Source: Escherichia phage vB_EcoS_PTXU06
Strand: one strand, 5' to 3'
Sequence record: NC_073064.1
DNA length: 45,904 nucleotides
In this document: positions 16,845 through 45,904 of the stretch, piece by piece
Layout: every line of letters begins with the position of its first letter
How positions within the stretch are numbered: position 1 is the first letter of the stretch
Position numbers and translations under genes: made by a program
Notes under the pieces: generated by a model
Told to the model about the DNA's origin: nothing
Seen by the model: only the letters and a program-made list of their open reading frames with translations
Databases searched by the model: none

Positions 16845-17160
16845 TGAAGCGGGACGTCCCGCTTTGTCCCGCCCTGTAAAACCGCATATCTAATCACTTT
16901 CATTGCATAAACTCAAAGCGGGACAGGCGGGACGTCCCGTTTTGTCCCACCACGCAAATGCGCATACCTATGCAGTTTTATTGCATAAAGTAAGCGGGAC
17001 AGAAAGCGGGACAGACAAGGGGCGGGACAAAGTGGGACAGCACCCCGTCCCCGCCAGTGCTGCCGCGGTTTTCAGCCGATCGGGACAGGCGGGACAAACC
17101 CCAGTCTTTCAGACTAGACGGGGGTCAGCGGTCCCCCTCGTCTGAGACTGAATAAGGTTT
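16845..17160. repeat. iteron cluster A: about 14 GCGGGACA boxes in both orientations plus a long imperfect palindrome
   Basis: Read directly; 374-bp non-coding gap between the chaperone stop and the tape-measure start; homologous to 45606-45790. Confidence 0.8.
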
Positions 17161-17218
17161 GTTTGAAATTCGCTGATACAATGACAGTCGGCAACTGCAT
17201 AAAAAAGGGGACTGCATA

Positions 17219-19861
17219 ATGGCAGATCAAGCAGCAGGCATCACGCTGAAGGCTGATGTTGCACAAATCAGAACGGCAAATACTGTGCTGGACTCCTTCG
17301 CACAGAAATCCGAGAACACAGAAAACAAGGTTAAGAAATTAAACGACACCCTCGGCAAATCCAAAAATGTGACGAGTGACGCCGCGGGCGGAATGGAGAA
17401 GCTGGCGACTGAATCGCAGCGTGCCGCCGACGGCATGACGAAACAAGAGCGACTTGCCAACCGGTTAGGCATGTCGACCAAAAACCTGGGCTTTGCCTCG
17501 CGTAACGCCGCATTCCAGTTACAGGATATTGCGGTTACGCTTGAGATGGGGATGCCATTGCACCGCGTTATGCTTCAGCAGTTACCACAGCTTACTGGGG
17601 CGTTCGGTGGATTTGGTAACACGCTGCGTTATGTTGCGGGCTTCCTCGGCCCGGTAGGGATCGGCATTGCGGCACTAACGGCAACGCTAGGCGTAGGGGT
17701 GGCGATTACGTCCCGCGCAGAAAACCAGGTCGCAGCGCTTAACAAGACGCTGGCGCTATCCGGTAATATCTCCGGCCTAACAGCTAACCAGATCCTGGTG
17801 TTATCGGAGAACGCCGAGCGCATGGGCGGATCATTCCGCAAGACGCGAGACACAATTCAGGCACTGGCGGCGGCGGGCGTGAAGGCGGGTGCTGACTTCG
17901 GCGCACTGGCTAAGACCGTTAATGACTTCGCGAAGGCGTCCAGCCAGCCGATCGAGGATGTGGTCGCGGCGGTAGCGAAGCTGTCTACAGACCCGGTAGG
18001 CGGCTTGCGAGCATTGGCTGATAAGTATCACGTCGTAAACGAAGCGCAGATCCGGCAGGTACAATCCCTGGTGGATATGGGTCGTGAGACTGAAGCGGTG
18101 GCGCTGGCTAATAAAACAGCCGCGGCGTCGTTCACCACCATGACCAACGATATTAAGTCCAACATGGGAACGCTCGAGCGGTCGATGAACATCGTCACAT
18201 CGGCAGCGAAATCTATGTGGGATGCCATCCTGGATGTTGGACGCGCGCAGTCCTCGAATGAGTCAGAGATGAAAGCGCGTGAATCATTGCAGCGACTGAC
18301 CACGGCTTACTATGCCGAGATGAAAGCGGTAAACGCTGCCGGTGGGGTGATGACCGAAGCGCAGAAAGCGCGTATTAACATGCTTTACAGCGAACTGGTA
18401 GCCCAGGAAAAAGTAGTGGCGTCGCTCACCCTGCGCAACCGTGCCGAGCGTGACAACGCCAACGCCGCGGAACAATCAGCGAAGGCGAACGAGGAGGCCA
18501 ACCGCACCGCGCGGGACCGCGCCGCGTTCGAGAAGGAGTACGCAACCAACGCGAAGAGGCGCGCCGACGAGATCGCCCGCCTCAATTTGCTTAATAAGCG
18601 CGGCGTGATTGACGAGAAAGAGCTTGCCGAGGCGGTGAAGCAGGTAAACGAGCGTTACAAAGACCCCGCCCCGAAGAAGGCCGCCGCCGTTCGAGTCGAT
18701 GCCGGGCTGAAAATGCTGGAGGTCGCACGGAGCGAACTGGCACAGCTTCGAGAATCCGGCAAGCAGATCGAGGCCAACTCTTCGACGCAGACCCGCACGC
18801 AACGAGCGCAAGCGGCCCTTAACAAGCTGATTGCCGACAACGAGCAGTTAATCGCTGCGAGCAAAGAAAGGGCGCTGACGGCAGCAGAGAAGCAGCAATT
18901 AGTCGAGTTCGGACGCGTGAAGGAAGTACGTGAGCAGATCGTCGAAGAAGCCAAATTGCTGGACGCGAAAGAGAAGCAGGTCAAGGCGCACGCGCAGATC
19001 GACGCCTTCGTTAAGAACCAGAACGCCGAGCTAAAAGCCACCGCGGCGGGCTATGCGCTTTCCACTCGCGAAGCGGCTAACCTGCGCGAAGAATTGCAGC
19101 TAATTGACCGCCTTAAGCGGGTGGGCGCTAGCGATACCGATATTGATCTGGCGGTGTCTAAGCTGCGCGAAGTGCAGGAAGCACAGACCGGTGCTAACGC
19201 CTCGCTATGGGATGGATTCAGCCGTGGGCTTAAGGATAGCGTGGATGAAATGGGTAACGGATATACGCAGATGGCGTCACTCACAAAATTCACGTTCGGC
19301 GCTATGCAGGACACGATGAACGAGTTTTTCGAGACTGGCAAGCTGAACGCAAAGGATATGGTTAAGTCCATCCTGAGCGAATTAATCAAGCTGGCTACAT
19401 CGCAGGCGTTCAAGTCCATCGTTAGCGCTTTCGGTGGCGACGGCGGCAAAAACGGATTGTTCGGCGCTATCTTCTCCGGCCTGACTAAGAATGCGGACGG
19501 CGGAGCGTACGCAGGGGGCAATCTCGCGGCCTATTCAGGGCAAGTGGTAAGCCAGCCAACCTTTTTCAGTTATGGCGTCCAGGCGTTCGCTAAGGGGGCA
19601 GGATTGATGGGGGAGGCTGGACCCGAGGCCATCATGCCGCTGAAGCGCGGGCCAGACGGGAAACTGGGCGTTGCCGCTGCCGGTGTAGGCGGGGGAATGA
19701 TTGTAACGACCAACGTTAACATGGGGACCGGTAAGACGGATACCAGTGTTAGCGGACCAGACCCGCGCACCGCGCAGGCGTTCGGGAAGCAAATCACCGA
19801 GTCGGTCAAGGCCGAGATCGTGAAGGCGACGAAACCGGGTGGTGTACTTTACAAACGATGA
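17219..19861 (+). CDS. tail tape measure protein
   Basis: 880 aa, long alpha-helical/coiled-coil character with Gly-rich C-terminal region; follows the chaperone pair. Confidence 0.85.
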   Translation: MADQAAGITLKADVAQIRTANTVLDSFAQKSENTENKVKKLNDTLGKSKNVTSDAAGGMEKLATESQRAADGMTKQERLANRLGMSTKNLGFASRNAAFQLQDIAVTLEMGMPLHRVMLQQLPQLTGAFGGFGNTLRYVAGFLGPVGIGIAALTATLGVGVAITSRAENQVAALNKTLALSGNISGLTANQILVLSENAERMGGSFRKTRDTIQALAAAGVKAGADFGALAKTVNDFAKASSQPIEDVVAAVAKLSTDPVGGLRALADKYHVVNEAQIRQVQSLVDMGRETEAVALANKTAAASFTTMTNDIKSNMGTLERSMNIVTSAAKSMWDAILDVGRAQSSNESEMKARESLQRLTTAYYAEMKAVNAAGGVMTEAQKARINMLYSELVAQEKVVASLTLRNRAERDNANAAEQSAKANEEANRTARDRAAFEKEYATNAKRRADEIARLNLLNKRGVIDEKELAEAVKQVNERYKDPAPKKAAAVRVDAGLKMLEVARSELAQLRESGKQIEANSSTQTRTQRAQAALNKLIADNEQLIAASKERALTAAEKQQLVEFGRVKEVREQIVEEAKLLDAKEKQVKAHAQIDAFVKNQNAELKATAAGYALSTREAANLREELQLIDRLKRVGASDTDIDLAVSKLREVQEAQTGANASLWDGFSRGLKDSVDEMGNGYTQMASLTKFTFGAMQDTMNEFFETGKLNAKDMVKSILSELIKLATSQAFKSIVSAFGGDGGKNGLFGAIFSGLTKNADGGAYAGGNLAAYSGQVVSQPTFFSYGVQAFAKGAGLMGEAGPEAIMPLKRGPDGKLGVAAAGVGGGMIVTTNVNMGTGKTDTSVSGPDPRTAQAFGKQITESVKAEIVKATKPGGVLYKR

Positions 19862-31985: not shown

Positions 31986-32303
31986 TTACGCATAAAAATT
32001 CGGGTCGCGCGCGACGTCTACCAGATACAGGTTGCTGATTCGGTTGCCGTAGTGGCCTGGTGTTCGCTGGCGGCACACAACGGCGTAGCCTGGAGGAATT
32101 GTATTGCCGGTCGCGATAATCCACGCCACGCGTGCGCCCGATAGAGTTTTGCCGTTGCATTCGATGCGCGTGCCGCCATCGGCGGTATTGAGGTTGCCAA
32201 TTTTGCAGCCGGTGGACTTCAGACGAATGACGCCGGTTTTGCTGTCGTAGGAGAATAACTGGTTAGTCATTGCAACCGAAAAATCGATGGCTTCGAATGT
32301 CAT
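31986..32303 (-). CDS. HNH_3-like (homing-endonuclease-like) protein, possibly degenerate
   Basis: 105 aa; ARVAWIIATG and GNRISNLYLV resemble HNH_3 proteins but the canonical D-H is replaced (VCRQ); ATGA-coupled to the upstream methyltransferase-like gene. Confidence 0.4.
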   Translation of the reverse strand: MTFEAIDFSVAMTNQLFSYDSKTGVIRLKSTGCKIGNLNTADGGTRIECNGKTLSGARVAWIIATGNTIPPGYAVVCRQRTPGHYGNRISNLYLVDVARDPNFYA

Positions 32304-32995
32304 TTTAAATTTTCCTCGTTAACCGCTATCGCGAAGCCGCGCGGAGTGAGCGACCTGATTAATTTGGTGCGGGCAGATTTGCCTCCGAGGCGACTATACT
32401 GCTTCGAGTACCCTTTTTCAACGAATACAGGCTTTTTCTCTGGCATACGGAAGCCGTTGCCGGTCCATAAGCAGGTCAGCTTCGGATATGAATCACGGGC
32501 GTTGATGTATTCAGGGAATAGCGGGTGCACGTCATCCTCCGGCAAATAGCCGCCATACTCCCACGGGTCAAACGAGTGGTCAGGCTTACGCCATTGAGTG
32601 GAGAGCACGCTGCGCGGGTTCTCAATCAGATACGGCACTTCAAAGAAATCACCCAGGTAAGCGGCGATCTTCGCGGTGCGTACCGCCTTAAGCTGGAAGG
32701 CAGGGTCGCTGGCGCGTTTGCGCGGGAAAGCTGGCGCACCGCTAACCGCCAGATCCGTACACGGCGGGAATGCATAAATGATGTCCGGCGTGCCGAAATC
32801 ACCATTCATCGCACGGTCCACGAAGTCCAGATCGATAAACTCATTGCGATACCGGATTCCGCGACCATAAATCCGGTAGTCAAGGTAAGACCCGTGATCG
32901 GCTTCGGAGTAGTTGAAGCAATAACACTTATGCCCCATCTCGGCAGCACGCTCAATCATCAAGCCGCTGCCGTCGAACAATGACCAGATTATCAT
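32300..32995 (-). CDS. putative DNA (cytosine-5)-methyltransferase-like protein, copy 1
   Basis: 231 aa; LFDGSG (motif I-like), FPPC (motif IV-like catalytic Cys), LIENP (motif VI-like); unusually short for a C5 methyltransferase. Confidence 0.5.
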   Translation of the reverse strand: MIIWSLFDGSGLMIERAAEMGHKCYCFNYSEADHGSYLDYRIYGRGIRYRNEFIDLDFVDRAMNGDFGTPDIIYAFPPCTDLAVSGAPAFPRKRASDPAFQLKAVRTAKIAAYLGDFFEVPYLIENPRSVLSTQWRKPDHSFDPWEYGGYLPEDDVHPLFPEYINARDSYPKLTCLWTGNGFRMPEKKPVFVEKGYSKQYSRLGGKSARTKLIRSLTPRGFAIAVNEENLK

Positions 32996-33168
32996 TTGCG
33001 CGCCTTTTTAGCTTTCATGTATTCCATTAAATCATCCTGAATATCGCGCTTACTGTCGCGACGCTCGGCGACCAGTTCGTCCAGCGTCCCGCGAGCCTGG
33101 ATAATGTAGACGAATACGGGTCGAGGGTGTCCTGCTTGCATCTGGCGAACCGGCCCGATACGTTCAAC
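32992..33168 (-). pseudogene. duplicated 3' fragment of the helicase gene (last ~58 codons)
   Basis: Identical to 34056-34232; the 90-aa track ORF here is a junction chimera of the helicase C-terminus with out-of-frame sequence. Confidence 0.6.
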
Positions 33169-33367
33169 TGCCGGTCGCGATAATCCACGCCACGCGTGCG
33201 CCCGATAGAGTTTTGCCGTTGCATTCGATGCGCGTGCCGCCATCGGCGGTATTGAGGTTGCCAATTTTGCAGCCGGTGGACTTCAGACGAATGACGCCGG
33301 TTTTGCTGTCGTAGGAGAATAACTGGTTAGTCATTGCAACCGAAAAATCGATGGCTTCGAATGTCAT
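33169..33367 (-). pseudogene. truncated 5' copy of the HNH-like gene
   Basis: First ~64 codons identical to 31986-32303, then broken at the duplication junction. Confidence 0.55.
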
Positions 33368-34059
33368 TTTAAATTTTCCTCGTTAACCGCTATCGCGAAG
33401 CCGCGCGGAGTGAGCGACCTGATTAATTTGGTGCGGGCAGATTTGCCTCCGAGGCGACTATACTGCTTCGAGTACCCTTTTTCAACGAATACAGGCTTTT
33501 TCTCTGGCATACGGAAGCCGTTGCCGGTCCATAAGCAGGTCAGCTTCGGATATGAATCACGGGCGTTGATGTATTCAGGGAATAGCGGGTGCACGTCATC
33601 CTCCGGCAAATAGCCGCCATACTCCCACGGGTCAAACGAGTGGTCAGGCTTACGCCATTGAGTGGAGAGCACGCTGCGCGGGTTCTCAATCAGATACGGC
33701 ACTTCAAAGAAATCACCCAGGTAAGCGGCGATCTTCGCGGTGCGTACCGCCTTAAGCTGGAAGGCAGGGTCGCTGGCGCGTTTGCGCGGGAAAGCTGGCG
33801 CACCGCTAACCGCCAGATCCGTACACGGCGGGAATGCATAAATGATGTCCGGCGTGCCGAAATCACCATTCATCGCACGGTCCACGAAGTCCAGATCGAT
33901 AAACTCATTGCGATACCGGATTCCGCGACCATAAATCCGGTAGTCAAGGTAAGACCCGTGATCGGCTTCGGAGTAGTTGAAGCAATAACACTTATGCCCC
34001 ATCTCGGCAGCACGCTCAATCATCAAGCCGCTGCCGTCGAACAATGACCAGATTATCAT
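33364..34059 (-). CDS. putative DNA (cytosine-5)-methyltransferase-like protein, copy 2
   Basis: Translation identical to copy 1. Confidence 0.5.
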   Translation of the reverse strand: MIIWSLFDGSGLMIERAAEMGHKCYCFNYSEADHGSYLDYRIYGRGIRYRNEFIDLDFVDRAMNGDFGTPDIIYAFPPCTDLAVSGAPAFPRKRASDPAFQLKAVRTAKIAAYLGDFFEVPYLIENPRSVLSTQWRKPDHSFDPWEYGGYLPEDDVHPLFPEYINARDSYPKLTCLWTGNGFRMPEKKPVFVEKGYSKQYSRLGGKSARTKLIRSLTPRGFAIAVNEENLK

Positions 34060-35480
34060 TTGCGCGCCTTTTTAGCTTTCATGTATTCCATTAAATCATC
34101 CTGAATATCGCGCTTACTGTCGCGACGCTCGGCGACCAGTTCGTCCAGCGTCCCGCGAGCCTGGATAATGTAGACGAATACGGGTCGAGGGTGTCCTGCT
34201 TGCATCTGGCGAACCGGCCCGATACGTTCAACGATCTGCGAAAAGTGCTCAAAGTTCCAGGTATCGGAGAAGATTGCCAGGTGATGACCGCCGTCCTGCA
34301 AGTTAAGGCCGTGGCCCGCCGATGCCGGGTGTGCAAACATGATGGGGATCTCGCCTCTGTTCCACGCCTCCATATCCTTATTGCCCTGCTTACCTTTACC
34401 CAACGCAACGCCGTGCGGAAATTTCTTCTTAAGACGTGCCAGGTCATGCTTATACTGATACGCAACGAGCAACGGCGCGCCGTTCAACTCCTCCACGATA
34501 CTTTCCAGCGCGTCCAGCTTCGCGTCGTGAATCTTCACCCACTCGTCGGTCCGTTCGCCGTCTTCGTCGACTTTATACACAGCCCCCGAAGCAAGCTGAA
34601 GGCACTTAATAGTCTTCGATGCAGCGTTCGCCGCCTCCACAGTTCCGCTTTCCAGTTCCGCAAATAACTCCGCTTCGAACTGGTCATAAATCTTGCGGGC
34701 TTTCTTCGGCAGGTCCACAACAACCGGCGTATATATTGGCTTGTCGCATCCGAAGTATTCCGCCGCGTCAACGGTTAGCGACACGTCGGACAGGCGTTGT
34801 TGGATCTCTTTCTCGGAGTTCTTAAGCGGGGCGTGCTGCATAGAGAAGCTGCCAGGCTTAACAGGCTTGCTAATGAACCAGCGATCGGTAAATGCCTTAT
34901 AGCTACTGCCGAGGCGTTCGCCACCGTCGACAAACCACGTTTGCCCCCACAGATCTTTCAAGCCATTTGGCGCTGGTGTGCCGGTAAGGTTAATCCAGCG
35001 CTTGACGTGCTTATGTGCGATCGCCGCCAGTGCGCGTGCGCGCTTACTACCCTGCTTACTTCGGTAGCCTTTCAGCTTAGTGGATTCATCGGCAACAACC
35101 ACCGTAAAGGGCCACGCATCGCCGTAATAGTCGACCAGCCACTCAACCACATCGTAGTTAACACAAACCACGTTAGCGTCGCTCTCAAGCGCGGCAATAC
35201 GGTCCTTCTCCGGTCCGGTGCCGTCTACGACCAGCAGGGATGAGAACCGCCATTTCTCCTGTTCCGGGGGCCATGTACCCGACGCAACACGCAGCGGGGC
35301 CAGCACCAGTACGCGGTCCTCATGATGGGACAGGATGCCAGTCTGGAACATTTTGTTCAGCGCCCACATTGTCGCGCCGGTTTTACCCGACCCCATTGTC
35401 GCCCAGATATTGCATCGCTTATGCTTGAGGATGAACGCGGTAATCAACTTCTGATATTCGCGGCGTCGGAATCGTGCCAT
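34056..35480 (-). CDS. SNF2/DEAD-like helicase
   Basis: Walker A GSGKTG, DExx box VVADEST, C-terminal helicase motif QIVERIGPVRQ; start taken at ATG 35480 (MARFRRR); the track ORF extends to a GTG at 35570 overlapping the upstream gene. Confidence 0.8.
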   Translation of the reverse strand: MARFRRREYQKLITAFILKHKRCNIWATMGSGKTGATMWALNKMFQTGILSHHEDRVLVLAPLRVASGTWPPEQEKWRFSSLLVVDGTGPEKDRIAALESDANVVCVNYDVVEWLVDYYGDAWPFTVVVADESTKLKGYRSKQGSKRARALAAIAHKHVKRWINLTGTPAPNGLKDLWGQTWFVDGGERLGSSYKAFTDRWFISKPVKPGSFSMQHAPLKNSEKEIQQRLSDVSLTVDAAEYFGCDKPIYTPVVVDLPKKARKIYDQFEAELFAELESGTVEAANAASKTIKCLQLASGAVYKVDEDGERTDEWVKIHDAKLDALESIVEELNGAPLLVAYQYKHDLARLKKKFPHGVALGKGKQGNKDMEAWNRGEIPIMFAHPASAGHGLNLQDGGHHLAIFSDTWNFEHFSQIVERIGPVRQMQAGHPRPVFVYIIQARGTLDELVAERRDSKRDIQDDLMEYMKAKKARK

Positions 35481-42866: not shown

Positions 42867-43196
42867 ATGAATGTAAACGACGCAATCGAAATGTTAACGA
42901 AGACTGTTAGCAGTGAAACAAGCCGGTCATGGGCTTATACCGATGCCGTTGGGGCGGTGTTATTTGAAATCGAACGACTGCGCAGTGTCGAAAAAGAATT
43001 ACGCGCCAGGCTGGAATTGCTCAACGGTACGGCAGCGAGCAAGCTGCAAAAGCACAATGAAGAAATGGAAGAATACAAAAAACAGGTTATCCGTTTGCGC
43101 GATGAGGGCAAATCTTGGGCGATGATTGCCGAGTTGACCGGAATTAATCAGAGCACAGTGCGCTCCTGGGTACGCAATAATAAAACTTCTAAGTAA
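42867..43196 (+). CDS. small DNA-binding protein with C-terminal HTH
   Basis: 109 aa; KSWAMIAELTGINQSTVRSWVRN helix-turn-helix; GAGGG RBS. Confidence 0.55.
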   Translation: MNVNDAIEMLTKTVSSETSRSWAYTDAVGAVLFEIERLRSVEKELRARLELLNGTAASKLQKHNEEMEEYKKQVIRLRDEGKSWAMIAELTGINQSTVRSWVRNNKTSK

Positions 43197-43206
43197 GGCC
43201 GCGGCA

Positions 43207-45471
43207 ATGAGCTTAATTAAATTCGCTGTAACACGACCCGCTAAAAAAGGCGAAAAAGCCAGGGCGGAAAACTTCCAGATGACTACCGAAGAGTTTTTCG
43301 AATTTATCAATGATGCGAAAGAAATATCCTCGGTGCATATCAACAAGACGGAAGATAAAGCGGAGTATGCGCGCCGCAAGCGTAAGGCCGATGGCATTGT
43401 GGCTTATACCAGTGATGGGCTGCGCCGCAAGACCAGTGCGGTGGACCGCTCGATCCTGTTCTTTGATATTGACCGCACCGACACCCGCACCCTGCGCCGC
43501 TGCCGTAAGGCGTTCATCGACGCGGGTCTGGAACACGTATTTCACACCACCACCGGCGACCGCCACCCGCTGAAGGGCGGCACGCGTTGCGCCCGTTTCC
43601 TGGTGCTCACTGACAAGCCTGTACCGGCTGAAGACCTGGGCCGCGTCCAGTATGCACTATTACACCAACTGGGTCTGTCAGATGTGGACTTCGACGATTG
43701 CACGAAAGACACAAACCGCCTGATGTACCTGCCACACCAGCAGTCCGTTATTAAGTGCCACTATGGCAAGCGCGCCAATGTGCGTCGACTACTCCGTCTG
43801 GCGGACAAGCTGGGGGTGGAAAAAGAGGAAGTACGCCGCGAGCTTACCCAGGGCGACGACGCAGTGGCAGACGGCATTCTGGACTGGTGCTTCCAGGCAG
43901 GATTCGAGGAGTTATCTTCCGGTCGCGGTTATGAAGTGCCGTGCCCGAACGAACATCTGCACAGCGGCGAAGGGTCGACGGCTATCATGGTCAAGGATGG
44001 CGAGATCCGTTTCAAGTGTATGCACACCGGCAACGAGTGTTGCTCGGAGCTAAATAGACACCAGCACCTTGCGCTACGTCTTATCGGGATACCGGACCAC
44101 CTGAACGTCGAGCCGCACAACATGTCCCGTAAGCAAATCGCCGCCATCCTTCCGGGACTGGACGACGAGGAAGTCGAATCCTTATATGAACATATTGTTG
44201 ATGCGGTTGGCGACGGCGAAGAATACGGCGTGTGCACCGATGCGGATCTGGATAACGAGCCGGTTGCGCTGTTCAGCAAGCACGACCCGATTATCGAGGG
44301 GTTGGTTAACTTTAAATCAACCTGGTATATGGCGGGTGAGTCGAACATCGGTAAGTCTTTCTACGTGCTGGGGCAAATGGGTGCGGTTGCCGCGGGGATT
44401 CCGTTCGGTGGCGCGAAGGTCGTCCAGTCCCATTGCTTCTATTTCGACGCGGAAGGTGGCGAAGCCTCCAACCAGCGTAAGGAAGCATTGCAGATCAAAT
44501 ATGAGCACGACCTGGACAAGCTGCACATTATTGACCTGCAATCACGCGGCTGGGATATCACCAGCAAGTCGGGCTTGCGCGAAGTTATCAGCTTTATAAA
44601 CCGCACCGCTAACGGCGAACCGGTTGGCCTGGTAGCTTTCGACTCACTCAACCAGACTGTTGCGCTGCGGTCCGCCGATGCTAAACCGTTTGACGAGAAC
44701 AACGCCAGCGATATGGGTGAAGTGGTCAAGGCGCTGAAGGCCATTGCGGAAAATACAGGCGGCAGTGCGGGCGTCATCCACCACCCGGCTAAAGGTGCAA
44801 ACGGAAGCAGATCCCCCCGCGGGTCCGGCGCGCTGCATGGCGCTGTCGATTCTGCGTTCTTCCTGGAACAGCCGGACGACAACCAGCCGGGACAACTTAA
44901 CCTGTATCACGAAAAGGCACGTAACGGCATCAAGCAAGCGCCGCGCGGCTTCGTCCTGCTCAAGTGCAAGGTTAAGGTGGATCTCCGCAAGTCCGAGGCG
45001 TTCGAAGCCCACCAGTCCACCAGCACCGGGCCGGACTTCGGTGATGTGGTCGCCGGTTGGGACGTCAAGCCGATTGCCTCCACGCCTCGCGACGAGACTC
45101 TGTACCTCGTACCGGTCGCCCTGGCACCGTTCGCCATCGAACAGGCGAAGGCCGCGGGCAAGGCAGCAGTTAAGGAAGAGAACGCCGCGGGACCGCGCAA
45201 CGAAAAAGAGAAAGTGCTTTATGCGGCACTGGAAAAACTGATGGAAGATAACCCGGACCATACCGGATTCAGTAAATCGGCAATTGTCCGCCAGGCTGGG
45301 CTTGCGAAAGGTGGCACATCGACGAAGGCAATCGACGATATGGTCGAGCGCGGCGTACTCGGTTTTTACACAGACCCACACACCGGGGCCATCTATGGGT
45401 CGTCGAATATCGTCATCAAAACGAATATACCCATCACGCTTTCGGCGACAGATGACGACTTAAAAGATTAA
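43207..45471 (+). CDS. primase-helicase (N-terminal primase-like domain, C-terminal P-loop helicase-like domain)
   Basis: 754 aa; central Cys/His cluster (CPNEHLHSGEG...CMHTGNECC); Walker A GESNIGKS and Walker-B-like LVAFDSLNQT. Confidence 0.75.
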   Translation: MSLIKFAVTRPAKKGEKARAENFQMTTEEFFEFINDAKEISSVHINKTEDKAEYARRKRKADGIVAYTSDGLRRKTSAVDRSILFFDIDRTDTRTLRRCRKAFIDAGLEHVFHTTTGDRHPLKGGTRCARFLVLTDKPVPAEDLGRVQYALLHQLGLSDVDFDDCTKDTNRLMYLPHQQSVIKCHYGKRANVRRLLRLADKLGVEKEEVRRELTQGDDAVADGILDWCFQAGFEELSSGRGYEVPCPNEHLHSGEGSTAIMVKDGEIRFKCMHTGNECCSELNRHQHLALRLIGIPDHLNVEPHNMSRKQIAAILPGLDDEEVESLYEHIVDAVGDGEEYGVCTDADLDNEPVALFSKHDPIIEGLVNFKSTWYMAGESNIGKSFYVLGQMGAVAAGIPFGGAKVVQSHCFYFDAEGGEASNQRKEALQIKYEHDLDKLHIIDLQSRGWDITSKSGLREVISFINRTANGEPVGLVAFDSLNQTVALRSADAKPFDENNASDMGEVVKALKAIAENTGGSAGVIHHPAKGANGSRSPRGSGALHGAVDSAFFLEQPDDNQPGQLNLYHEKARNGIKQAPRGFVLLKCKVKVDLRKSEAFEAHQSTSTGPDFGDVVAGWDVKPIASTPRDETLYLVPVALAPFAIEQAKAAGKAAVKEENAAGPRNEKEKVLYAALEKLMEDNPDHTGFSKSAIVRQAGLAKGGTSTKAIDDMVERGVLGFYTDPHTGAIYGSSNIVIKTNIPITLSATDDDLKD

Positions 45472-45546
45472 ATTTTGCGCGCATTGGTTGCCGATATGGG
45501 AATTCCCATATCGCCAAAAGATTAAATTTTGCGCGCATTGGTTGCC
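45462..45546. repeat. two 31-bp direct repeats flanking a perfect 20-bp palindrome
   Basis: AAAAGATTAAATTTTGCGCGCATTGGTTGCC at 45462-45492 and 45516-45546; GATATGGGAATTCCCATATC at 45493-45512. Confidence 0.85.
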
Positions 45547-45605
45547 ATTTTGGGTGTTTTTATCCGGTCGTATTGGTTGCCGTGTAATGTAAATATAGTG
45601 AATAG

Positions 45606-45790
45606 TTATGCAGTTTTATTGCATAAACTAAGCGGGACAAAAAGCGGGACAGCCAAGGGGCGGGACAAAGCGGGACAGCACCCCCGTCCCGCCCCGGATG
45701 GCGCGGCCTAGAGAGGAGCGGGACAGCGGGACAGCACCCCAGTCTTTCAGACTAGACGGGGGTCAACGGCCCCCCTCGTCTGAGACTGCA
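45606..45790. repeat. iteron cluster B: about 8 GCGGGACA boxes plus a long imperfect palindrome
   Basis: Roughly 85% identical by eye to 16967-17150, with small indels. Confidence 0.8.
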
Positions 45791-45904
45791 TAAAATCCGG
45801 GGATTGCAAAATACACGGCAGCATGATGCGAAGTGCGGTCGCGGATGAACTAGGCAACCAATGCGAGTTGTATTATGCGGAGTGAAAAACGCGGTTTGCA
45901 GATT

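Follow-up and report, generated by a model that had tools for sequence, protein, structure and literature searches.

A candidate two-copy iteron origin next to the primase-helicase gene of Escherichia phage vB_EcoS_PTXU06

The genome of Escherichia phage vB_EcoS_PTXU06 carries, directly downstream of a gene for a fused primase-helicase, a module of short repeated boxes and hairpins that recurs once more among the tail genes. We analysed the whole 45,904-nt stretch of its sequence record (NC_073064.1; hereafter the window), the last 2.9 kb of which shares 93–95 per cent identity with over 150 deposited phages of Escherichia and Shigella that belong to the genus Dhillonvirus (HK578-like siphoviruses). 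We propose that the copy beside the gene, module B, is the initiator-adjacent copy of a two-copy cis-acting replication element, namely an iteron origin with a self-loading primase-helicase, and we assign this reading a probability of about 0.62. The original prediction, made from the sequence of the window, had called the region a strong candidate origin tied to the adjacent initiator gene, and this proposal is supported by the clustering of the boxes, their synteny with the gene and the switching of box sequences among lineages. Dhillonviruses, which include HK578, several phages of the BASEL collection and many therapy-candidate isolates, are common phages of E. coli. In the searchable literature, we found no description or mapping of a Dhillonvirus origin.

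Module anatomy, candidate initiator and box switching

The box GCGGGACA occurs 13 times in the window, compared to 1.98 occurrences expected, and none of 100 shuffled sequences reached 13 copies. All but one of these copies fall in two clusters, located at 16865–17096 and 45632–45733, and half of the CGGGAC cores in the genome (18 of 36) are packed into less than 350 bp. Alignment of the two clusters delineates a module of approximately 190 bp, present in two copies of the same orientation, in which a small hairpin with TGCATAAA is followed by four direct boxes, one inverted box, a copy-specific spacer, two further boxes, and a long hairpin. Across 34 module copies, the box-core columns are better conserved than the inter-box columns (0.917 vs 0.823; Mann–Whitney P-value = 2e-4).

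In module B, the iteron array spans positions 45632–45733 on the plus strand, with GCGGGACA at 45632, 45644, 45660, 45670, 45718, and 45726 and an inverted CGGGAC core at 45686–45691. The cluster had been predicted to hold about eight boxes; the cluster itself is real, while the count comes to seven (six exact copies and the inverted core). Directly to the left of the boxes lies a 49-bp stretch (45583–45631) of 78 per cent A+T, compared to 46 per cent in the genome, which by its composition is a candidate DNA-unwinding element. The stretch contains GAATAGTTATGCA, which is conserved across genera and is also found in Cornellvirus VSiA, as well as the small hairpin TTATGCA-GTTTTAT-TGCATAA (45606–45626). 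On the other side of the array is the long hairpin (CAGTCTTTCAGACTAGACGGGGG-loop-CCCCCCTCGTCTGAGACTG; 45740–45788, plus strand), an imperfect structure of 49 nt that is a candidate priming or assembly signal. It is repeated at 17102–17150 with 47 of the 49 bases identical, and corresponds to the long palindrome that had been noted as common to both clusters. All lineages retain the hairpin; its arms hardly vary, even where the box type is different, and its loop is variable. When positions 45583–45795 are folded as a single strand, the z-score is −3.4, and none of 200 shuffled sequences folds as well.

Module A is situated on the plus strand between the tail-chaperone genes and the tape-measure gene, which starts at 17219. 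The full unit (16969–17150) consists of a small hairpin (16969–16987), boxes at 16994, 17006, 17022, 17032 (GTGGGACA), 17080 (TCGGGACA), and 17089, and the long hairpin, and is preceded by a partial unit (16849–16949) with direct and inverted CGGGAC cores, the palindromes GCGGGACGTCCCGC and GGCGGGACGTCCCG, and the TGCATAAA motif at 16904. On the circular genome, the two modules are 17.3 kb apart and have the same orientation. Module A was found in all relatives examined, and the same two genomic positions are occupied in every lineage examined. Within one genome, copies A and B resemble each other slightly more strongly than copies taken across genomes do (0.776 vs 0.760; permutation P-value = 0.003), which is a real but small effect, superseded by the comparison of box types described below.

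The gene next to module B (43207–45471, plus strand) encodes a protein of 754 amino acids that combines an archaeo-eukaryotic primase (AEP) Prim-Pol domain, a Cys/His cluster, a RepA-like AAA_25 helicase, a predicted C-terminal winged helix, and an acidic tail. The primase domain has the AEP fold and the helicase core matches Pfam AAA_25, a family of the RepA/RecA type, while the protein has no sequence match to any solved structure. The predicted winged-helix domain is encoded by positions 45199–45426 (plus strand; approximately residues 665–740), and its predicted recognition helix starts from G702-G703-T704-S705-T706. In the AlphaFold model of residues 654–754, three helices and a beta wing form a winged helix with a confidence score (pLDDT) of 76, and the top Foldseek matches of this model are winged-helix proteins (MepR/MarR, Rio2, histone H1, and ORC2; probability ≤0.99, E-value of about 0.1). 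A homologue search with the C-terminal 200 residues alone returned no matches, whereas the full-length query found homologues. A conserved acidic tail (DDDLKD or DEDLEN; residues 749–754, encoded by 45451–45468 in the window) forms the end of the protein and recalls that of T7 gp4, whose acidic C-terminal tail contacts the DNA polymerase.

All lineages examined, namely Dhillonvirus, Cornellvirus, Tsm2, and four metagenomic ones, have a repeat-rich non-coding region directly 3' of their homologue of the primase-helicase gene, with boxes that differ from lineage to lineage. The box is GGGGGAGA in Cornellvirus VSiA, where a single cluster exists in the whole genome, next to the primase-helicase gene; it is TGTGCGGAA in Tsm2, GGGATC together with CTGCCAAC in metagenomic lineage L038, and TTGCGAGT in metagenomic lineage L039. 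Even in relatives whose helicase is 67–70 per cent identical to that of the window, the architecture is kept while the 8-bp box is switched at all positions. Specifically, module B carries boxes of the GCGGGACA type in the window and L036, of the GTGTGGCA type in L037 and L040, and of the GTGTGCCA or GGTGCCA type in L041, L134, and L135. Of these lineages, L036, L040, and L041 can be read through to a nearly identical long hairpin, whereas the contigs of L037, L134, and L135 stop before it.

Module A follows the same pattern. The contig that yielded L037 also carries, just upstream of the tape-measure gene, a GTGTGGCA-type module A (L136), the two contig ends sharing 27 nt. A GTGTGGCA-type module A is likewise present in the sample of L040 (L138), a GTGTGCCA-type module A in the sample of L041 (L139), and a CGGGAC-type module A in a second CGGGAC lineage (L137). 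When the module is compared among relatives, as the original prediction had suggested, the two-site architecture is thus kept, and the box type switches in A and B together. Because of this joint switching, we conclude that the two modules are probably read by the same lineage-specific factor and that both are maintained.

In six lineages with a roughly star-like relationship, the start of the predicted recognition helix (residues 704–706) sorts without exception by box type: GGT-[S/N]T occurs with CGGGACA, GGS-ST with GTGGCA, and GGS-T[S/T] with GTGCCA. By comparison, the helix-turn-helix of the small terminase is nearly invariant across the box types. Just upstream of the primase-helicase gene, a small protein with matches to Pfam HTH_23 and Sigma70_r4_2 (sigma-70 region-4-like) is encoded at 42867–43196 (plus strand), and its helix-turn-helix is identical in seven lineages that span three box types; for this reason, it cannot set box specificity. 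It is instead a candidate binder of the invariant ATTGGTTGC motif described in the last section. Apart from this invariant protein, which is the sole small DNA-binding protein nearby, we identified no other DNA-binding protein that varies among the lineages.

If module B is an origin, the C-terminal winged helix would bind the iterons, and this binding would nucleate self-loading of the helicase at the AT-rich stretch. A hairpin extruded from the unwound DNA could then act as a priming or assembly signal for the AEP primase domain, with RSF1010 (ssiA/ssiB stem-loops) and pRN1 (a stem-loop origin) as possible models, and the phage family-A DNA polymerase would extend the primer. The iterons and the hairpin of module A are those of module B, so both should bind one and the same protein. 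Module A may be an additional origin; alternatively, as has been proposed for oriR of SPP1, it may be a bound roadblock that helps replication to pass from the theta mode to the concatemer-forming mode.

Weighing the origin reading against its rivals

Several observations weigh against an origin at these modules. We infer binding, unwinding, and initiation there from the features described above, and GC skew in the window tracks gene orientation and marks no origin. The fold matches of the modelled winged helix are generic, and their E-values (about 0.1) are weak. Among the 12 predicted pairs of the long hairpin, only two show pair-preserving change on both sides; the arms appear too invariant for selection on structure to be separated from selection on sequence. 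The link between protein and box is a correlation over six lineages only, not proof, and an earlier candidate for the specificity determinant, the helix-2 motif (FSKS, FSRR, or FSAR), fitted the first five lineages and was then rejected, as P0009 (FSKS) and P0013 (FSKA) have GTGCCA boxes. In addition, the pairing of modules A and B in the cases of L138 and L139 is based on a shared sample and not on a shared contig. Lastly, the −10-like element that follows module A in most lineages and the position of both modules at gene-block boundaries make a transcriptional role possible.

That role forms the main rival, which we regard as rather unlikely. According to it, the modules are transcription-control cassettes that would separate early from late genes and head and tail-tube genes from tape-measure and tail-tip genes, with the boxes serving as operator or activator sites for a lineage-specific factor, the hairpin as a terminator or attenuator, and a promoter following. 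The gene blocks on both sides of each module are indeed co-oriented, and module A is followed, before the tape-measure start codon, by a conserved extended −10-like TGATACAAT (17174–17182, plus strand) and then by TCGGCAACTG (17188–17197, plus strand); GATACAAT is kept in most copies of module A, with GCTACAAT in L139 and no clear match in L137. Moreover, ATTGGTTGC motifs that overlap promoter −35 hexamers flank module B, and one deposited relative annotates a 'terminator' within the box region. However, a scan of positions 45300–45904 detected neither a sigma-70-like promoter nor a plus-strand intrinsic terminator (a GC-rich stem followed by a T-run), and the long hairpin is succeeded by GAGACTGCATAAAATCC, with no U-tract directly behind it. 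Other genera have a single box cluster, located only beside the primase-helicase gene, and, as noted above, the changes in the boxes are not matched by any change in the nearby small DNA-binding protein, and no other variable candidate for the postulated factor was identified.

The module may alternatively be transcribed into a structured non-coding RNA with functional hairpins, either a small RNA or an antitermination element comparable to put of HK022, a phage that has two put sites. Three predicted hairpins, the folding z-score of −3.4, and the presence of two copies that are both sense-oriented in long operons are compatible with this explanation, which is nevertheless very unlikely. The search against Rfam 15 gave no match at the gathering score anywhere in the window; short direct boxes are conserved amid variable inter-box sequence, a pattern of protein-binding DNA; and the boxes switch as units without compensatory pairing, in addition to the almost complete lack of covariation in the hairpin.

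We find it highly improbable that the module is a selfish, mobile, or recombinogenic repeat without a phage role, similar to a miniature transposable element, whose second copy is a neutral duplication. Such a repeat would accommodate the two copies, the insertion/deletion flanked by direct repeats beside module B, and the tendency of assemblies to break at the modules (see below), but not the occupation of the same two positions in every lineage examined. The module is also unmatched in 72,556 plasmids and 5,426 E. coli genomes, and its box cores stay intact in both copies while other positions drift and the copies change box type together.

The end and the start of the window are contiguous in five relatives, and the segment homologous to its last 2.9 kb sits at many different positions across the deposited Dhillonvirus records, the starts of which vary widely. 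For these reasons, the window is, judging by sequence comparison, a complete and circularly permuted Dhillonvirus genome with arbitrary ends. The idea that the modules are pac or cos-like signals for packaging, with the boxes bound by the small terminase, which takes up the genome-end signal of the original prediction, is barely credible: repeated short boxes are typical of small-terminase binding sites and the window ends 116 nt past the long hairpin, but the window junction is continuous in the relatives, deposited records start at many positions, the terminase genes are approximately 5 kb away, the helix-turn-helix of the small terminase is conserved across box types, and the terminase is P22/Sf6-like (according to Pfam marks on the genes of a relative), suggesting headful packaging.

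Relation to known replication systems

The closest functional parallels to the proposed iteron origin come from several other elements. In the pathogenicity islands of Staphylococcus aureus (SaPIs), the initiators Rep1 and PriRep5 are self-loading helicases, PriRep5 of SaPI5 being fused to a primase (PMC9371898). A C-terminal winged helix reads short iterons, of which 6–12 lie directly downstream of rep and form the origin together with an AT-rich region, and the iteron sequence and Rep constitute cognate pairs that differ between elements (PMC9371898). The candidate system of the window is similar in that the presumed initiator is itself a helicase with a C-terminal winged helix (predicted here), in that the iterons are located directly 3' of its gene, and in the presence of an AT-rich region. 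It differs in helicase type (SF3/AAA+ in SaPI Rep, RepA-like AAA_25 here), and no sequence homology was detected between the two. Moreover, iterons of opposite orientation flank a central AT-rich region in SaPIs, whereas those of module B are mostly direct, lie on one side of the AT-rich stretch, and are followed by a hairpin; a distant second copy such as module A has not been described for SaPIs.

In the alpha protein of satellite phage P4, one polypeptide unites a Toprim-type primase, a helicase, and, at the C-terminus, a winged helix with which it binds origin repeats (PMC4234260). The fusion of primase, helicase, and winged helix (the last predicted here) and the remote second cis element are shared with the window. 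In P4, the second iteron-bearing cis element, crr, is kilobases away, and the type I iteron is TGTTCACC. The original prediction had compared the region to the ori/crr arrangement of P4, and the comparison is apt in so far as it concerns how the system may work and the distant copy, which is real. It does not extend to membership in the P4 family, since an AEP fold and AAA_25 helicase replace Toprim and SF3 and the boxes are GCGGGACA (CGGGACA) instead of TGTTCACC.

[quoted passage not shown] The initiator gene contains or adjoins one region, and the late structural genes are interrupted by the other, approximately 13 kb away on the circle; initiator bound at oriR has been proposed to stall forks and thereby to trigger the switch from theta replication to concatemers (PMC6316719). 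The window resembles SPP1 in having two regions of boxes and AT-rich sequence, one at the initiator gene (module B) and one among the late genes (module A). In SPP1, however, gp38 as origin binder, gp39 as loader, and gp40 as DnaB-type helicase are separate proteins that act with the host primase, in contrast to the single fused candidate initiator here. Furthermore, oriL is located inside gene 38 rather than after it, the two phages have different box sequences, and descriptions of SPP1 mention no conserved long hairpin.

At oriV of the IncQ plasmid RSF1010, RepC binds iterons, RepA is the helicase, and RepB' primes at stem-loops (PMC4234260). These are three separate proteins rather than one fusion, and the two ssi sites are on opposite strands, compared to one hairpin per module in the window. 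The fold similarity to RSF1010 is generic to AEP primases, and RepC homology is no part of the comparison. In the archaeal plasmid pRN1, the orf56/orf904 operon encodes a small DNA-binding protein followed by a protein with AEP primase, helicase, and winged-helix parts, and the origin directly downstream of the gene for the latter is stem-loop-dependent and has no iterons (PMC4234260). The same order of a gene for a small DNA-binding protein, a gene for an AEP-helicase-winged-helix protein, and an origin with a stem-loop (a candidate in our case) is observed in the window, which differs from pRN1 in combining AAA_25 with iterons in place of an SF3 helicase without them.

By analogy, the element would work like the SaPI, P4, SPP1, RSF1010, and pRN1 systems, but it belongs to none of these families, given a helicase other than SF3, a non-Toprim primase, and different iteron sequences. 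An AEP primase, a RepA-type helicase, and a predicted winged helix fused in one protein, together with a candidate origin of iterons and hairpin in two copies, make up a distinct combination. As systems of this kind are already known from SaPI Rep, P4, SPP1, and RSF1010, the advance is incremental and not conceptual. A defined origin with a predicted initiator–iteron code would nevertheless offer an engineering handle, for example for swaps of origin specificity and for replication-dependent plasmids, as well as a testable case of an initiator and an origin that change specificity together at two distant sites.

Some defences respond to the initiation of phage replication, and the element would also give a concrete candidate for the DNA structure that they sense. 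Mutants of HK578 able to evade the OLD defence have been mapped to this helicase-primase and to its promoter, in a study that did not locate the origin (bioRxiv 10.64898/2026.07.10.737580). We advance one broader scenario tentatively, as possible but doubtful: closely related lytic phages may have swapped the specificity of a two-site origin repeatedly, three or more iteron types being present in lineages whose initiators are 67–70 per cent identical to that of the window, and each swap may have affected the two sites and the recognition helix together. The distal copy would act as a programmed fork barrier, and competition between co-infecting phages, origin-hijacking satellites, or origin-sensing host defences could be the drivers. 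Such repeated swapping would resemble plasmid incompatibility groups.

Direct repeats, the ATTGGTTGCC motif and other features

The left third of the region is distinct from the iteron array. Two direct repeats (45462–45492 and 45516–45546), identical over 31 bp and extending to 39 bp at 92 per cent identity, flank the perfect 20-bp palindrome GATATGGGAATTCCCATATC (45493–45512), all of which the original prediction had listed. The final three codons of the primase-helicase gene (AAA GAT TAA) contain the start of the first repeat, and the insertion/deletion unit as a whole covers positions 45462–45554. The repeat with the palindrome behaves as a 54-bp insertion/deletion: of 17 close relatives, 9 carry it and 8 do not, and the unit is therefore dispensable. 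Its presence and absence would be the expected outcome of slippage between direct repeats around a palindrome.

The three exact copies of ATTGGTTGCC that had been reported are found at 45483–45492, 45537–45546, and 45572–45581 on the plus strand, and a fourth, inverted copy is located to the right of the module (45853–45862, minus strand). These boxes belong to the ATTGGT[TC]GC[AC] family (ATTGGTTGC[AC]), which has 20 matches in the genome with at most one mismatch, compared to 3.5 expected; further sites are at 41, 612, 3339, 11249, 11263, 27294, 30293, 30298, 31967, 31984, 35984, 39630, 39646, and 42668. When their contexts are read against the table of open reading frames (ORFs), the sites are mostly situated between long ORFs and are often paired, and several overlap the −35 hexamer of sigma-70-like promoters (TTGCAT, 17 bp, TATAxT). 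The ATTGGTTGCC motif is unchanged in lineages with different origin boxes. Being genome-wide, promoter-associated, and invariant where the boxes differ, ATTGGTTGCC is best read as a promoter-associated motif of the whole genome and not as the origin repeat for which it had been taken, and the family looks like an operator of a phage regulator or a promoter element. We accordingly regard the repeats, the palindrome, and the ATTGGTTGCC boxes, on sequence grounds, as no part of the iteron system. The possibility that the ATTGGTTGCC boxes in this region are themselves promoters was rejected, as their 11-bp spacing to a −10-like hexamer is wrong and the promoter scan is empty. In L036, L040, and L041, the codons for E-L-V-A near the C-terminus of the primase-helicase spell GAATTGGTTGCC, which places a ATTGGTTGCC box inside the coding sequence before the stop codon.

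The 7-nt loop of the small hairpin in module B occurs in either orientation among close relatives (L001–L031; GTTTTAT, n = 8; ATAAAAC, n = 9). The inversion has the appearance of a flip-flop polymorphism, as hairpins formed in vivo typically show. Loop orientation and the 54-bp insertion/deletion occur in all four combinations among the relatives.

To the right of module B, the ACGGCAGCA motif (45815–45823, plus strand) is found in all genera examined. Its general form, A(C/T)CGGCA(G/A)C, is present at this position in the window and in L032, L033, L036, and L038–L041, and it is seen again at 17188–17197, after the −10-like element and just ahead of the tape-measure gene. This motif could act as a priming site, or it could be the first part of a transcript.

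Public assemblies tend to break at the modules. In the Logan contig whose end and start are L037 and L136, respectively, the same 27-nt piece of the box array is found at both termini, and the IMG/VR contig L127 starts within the loop of the long hairpin. Genome ends reported at module positions in these phages are probably repeat artefacts. An IMG/VR scan with GTGTGGCARGTGTGGCA, aimed at GTGTGGCA-type genomes, retrieved 78 contigs, all unrelated, and none from a relative; an IMG/VR search based on the tape-measure gene returned close relatives only, and a literature search with the box sequence retrieved unrelated papers only. The unrelated IMG/VR contigs (L042–L119; for example, L059, L103, and L114) bear GTGTGGCA arrays at 9-bp spacing, which are probably iteron-like arrays of other elements, unrelated to this phage group.

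In L137, two small minus-strand genes and extra ATTGGTTGC boxes (1853–2601) are inserted between the tail-chaperone genes and module A; the neighbourhood of module A therefore tolerates insertions, like the oriR region of SPP1. Elsewhere in the window, a perfect tandem duplication of 1064 bp (32105–33168 and 33169–34232) doubles a minus-strand ORF of 231 amino acids. Most deposited relatives are approximately 42–45 kb long and the window is longer; the duplication, either real or an assembly artefact, may be part of the reason for this greater length.

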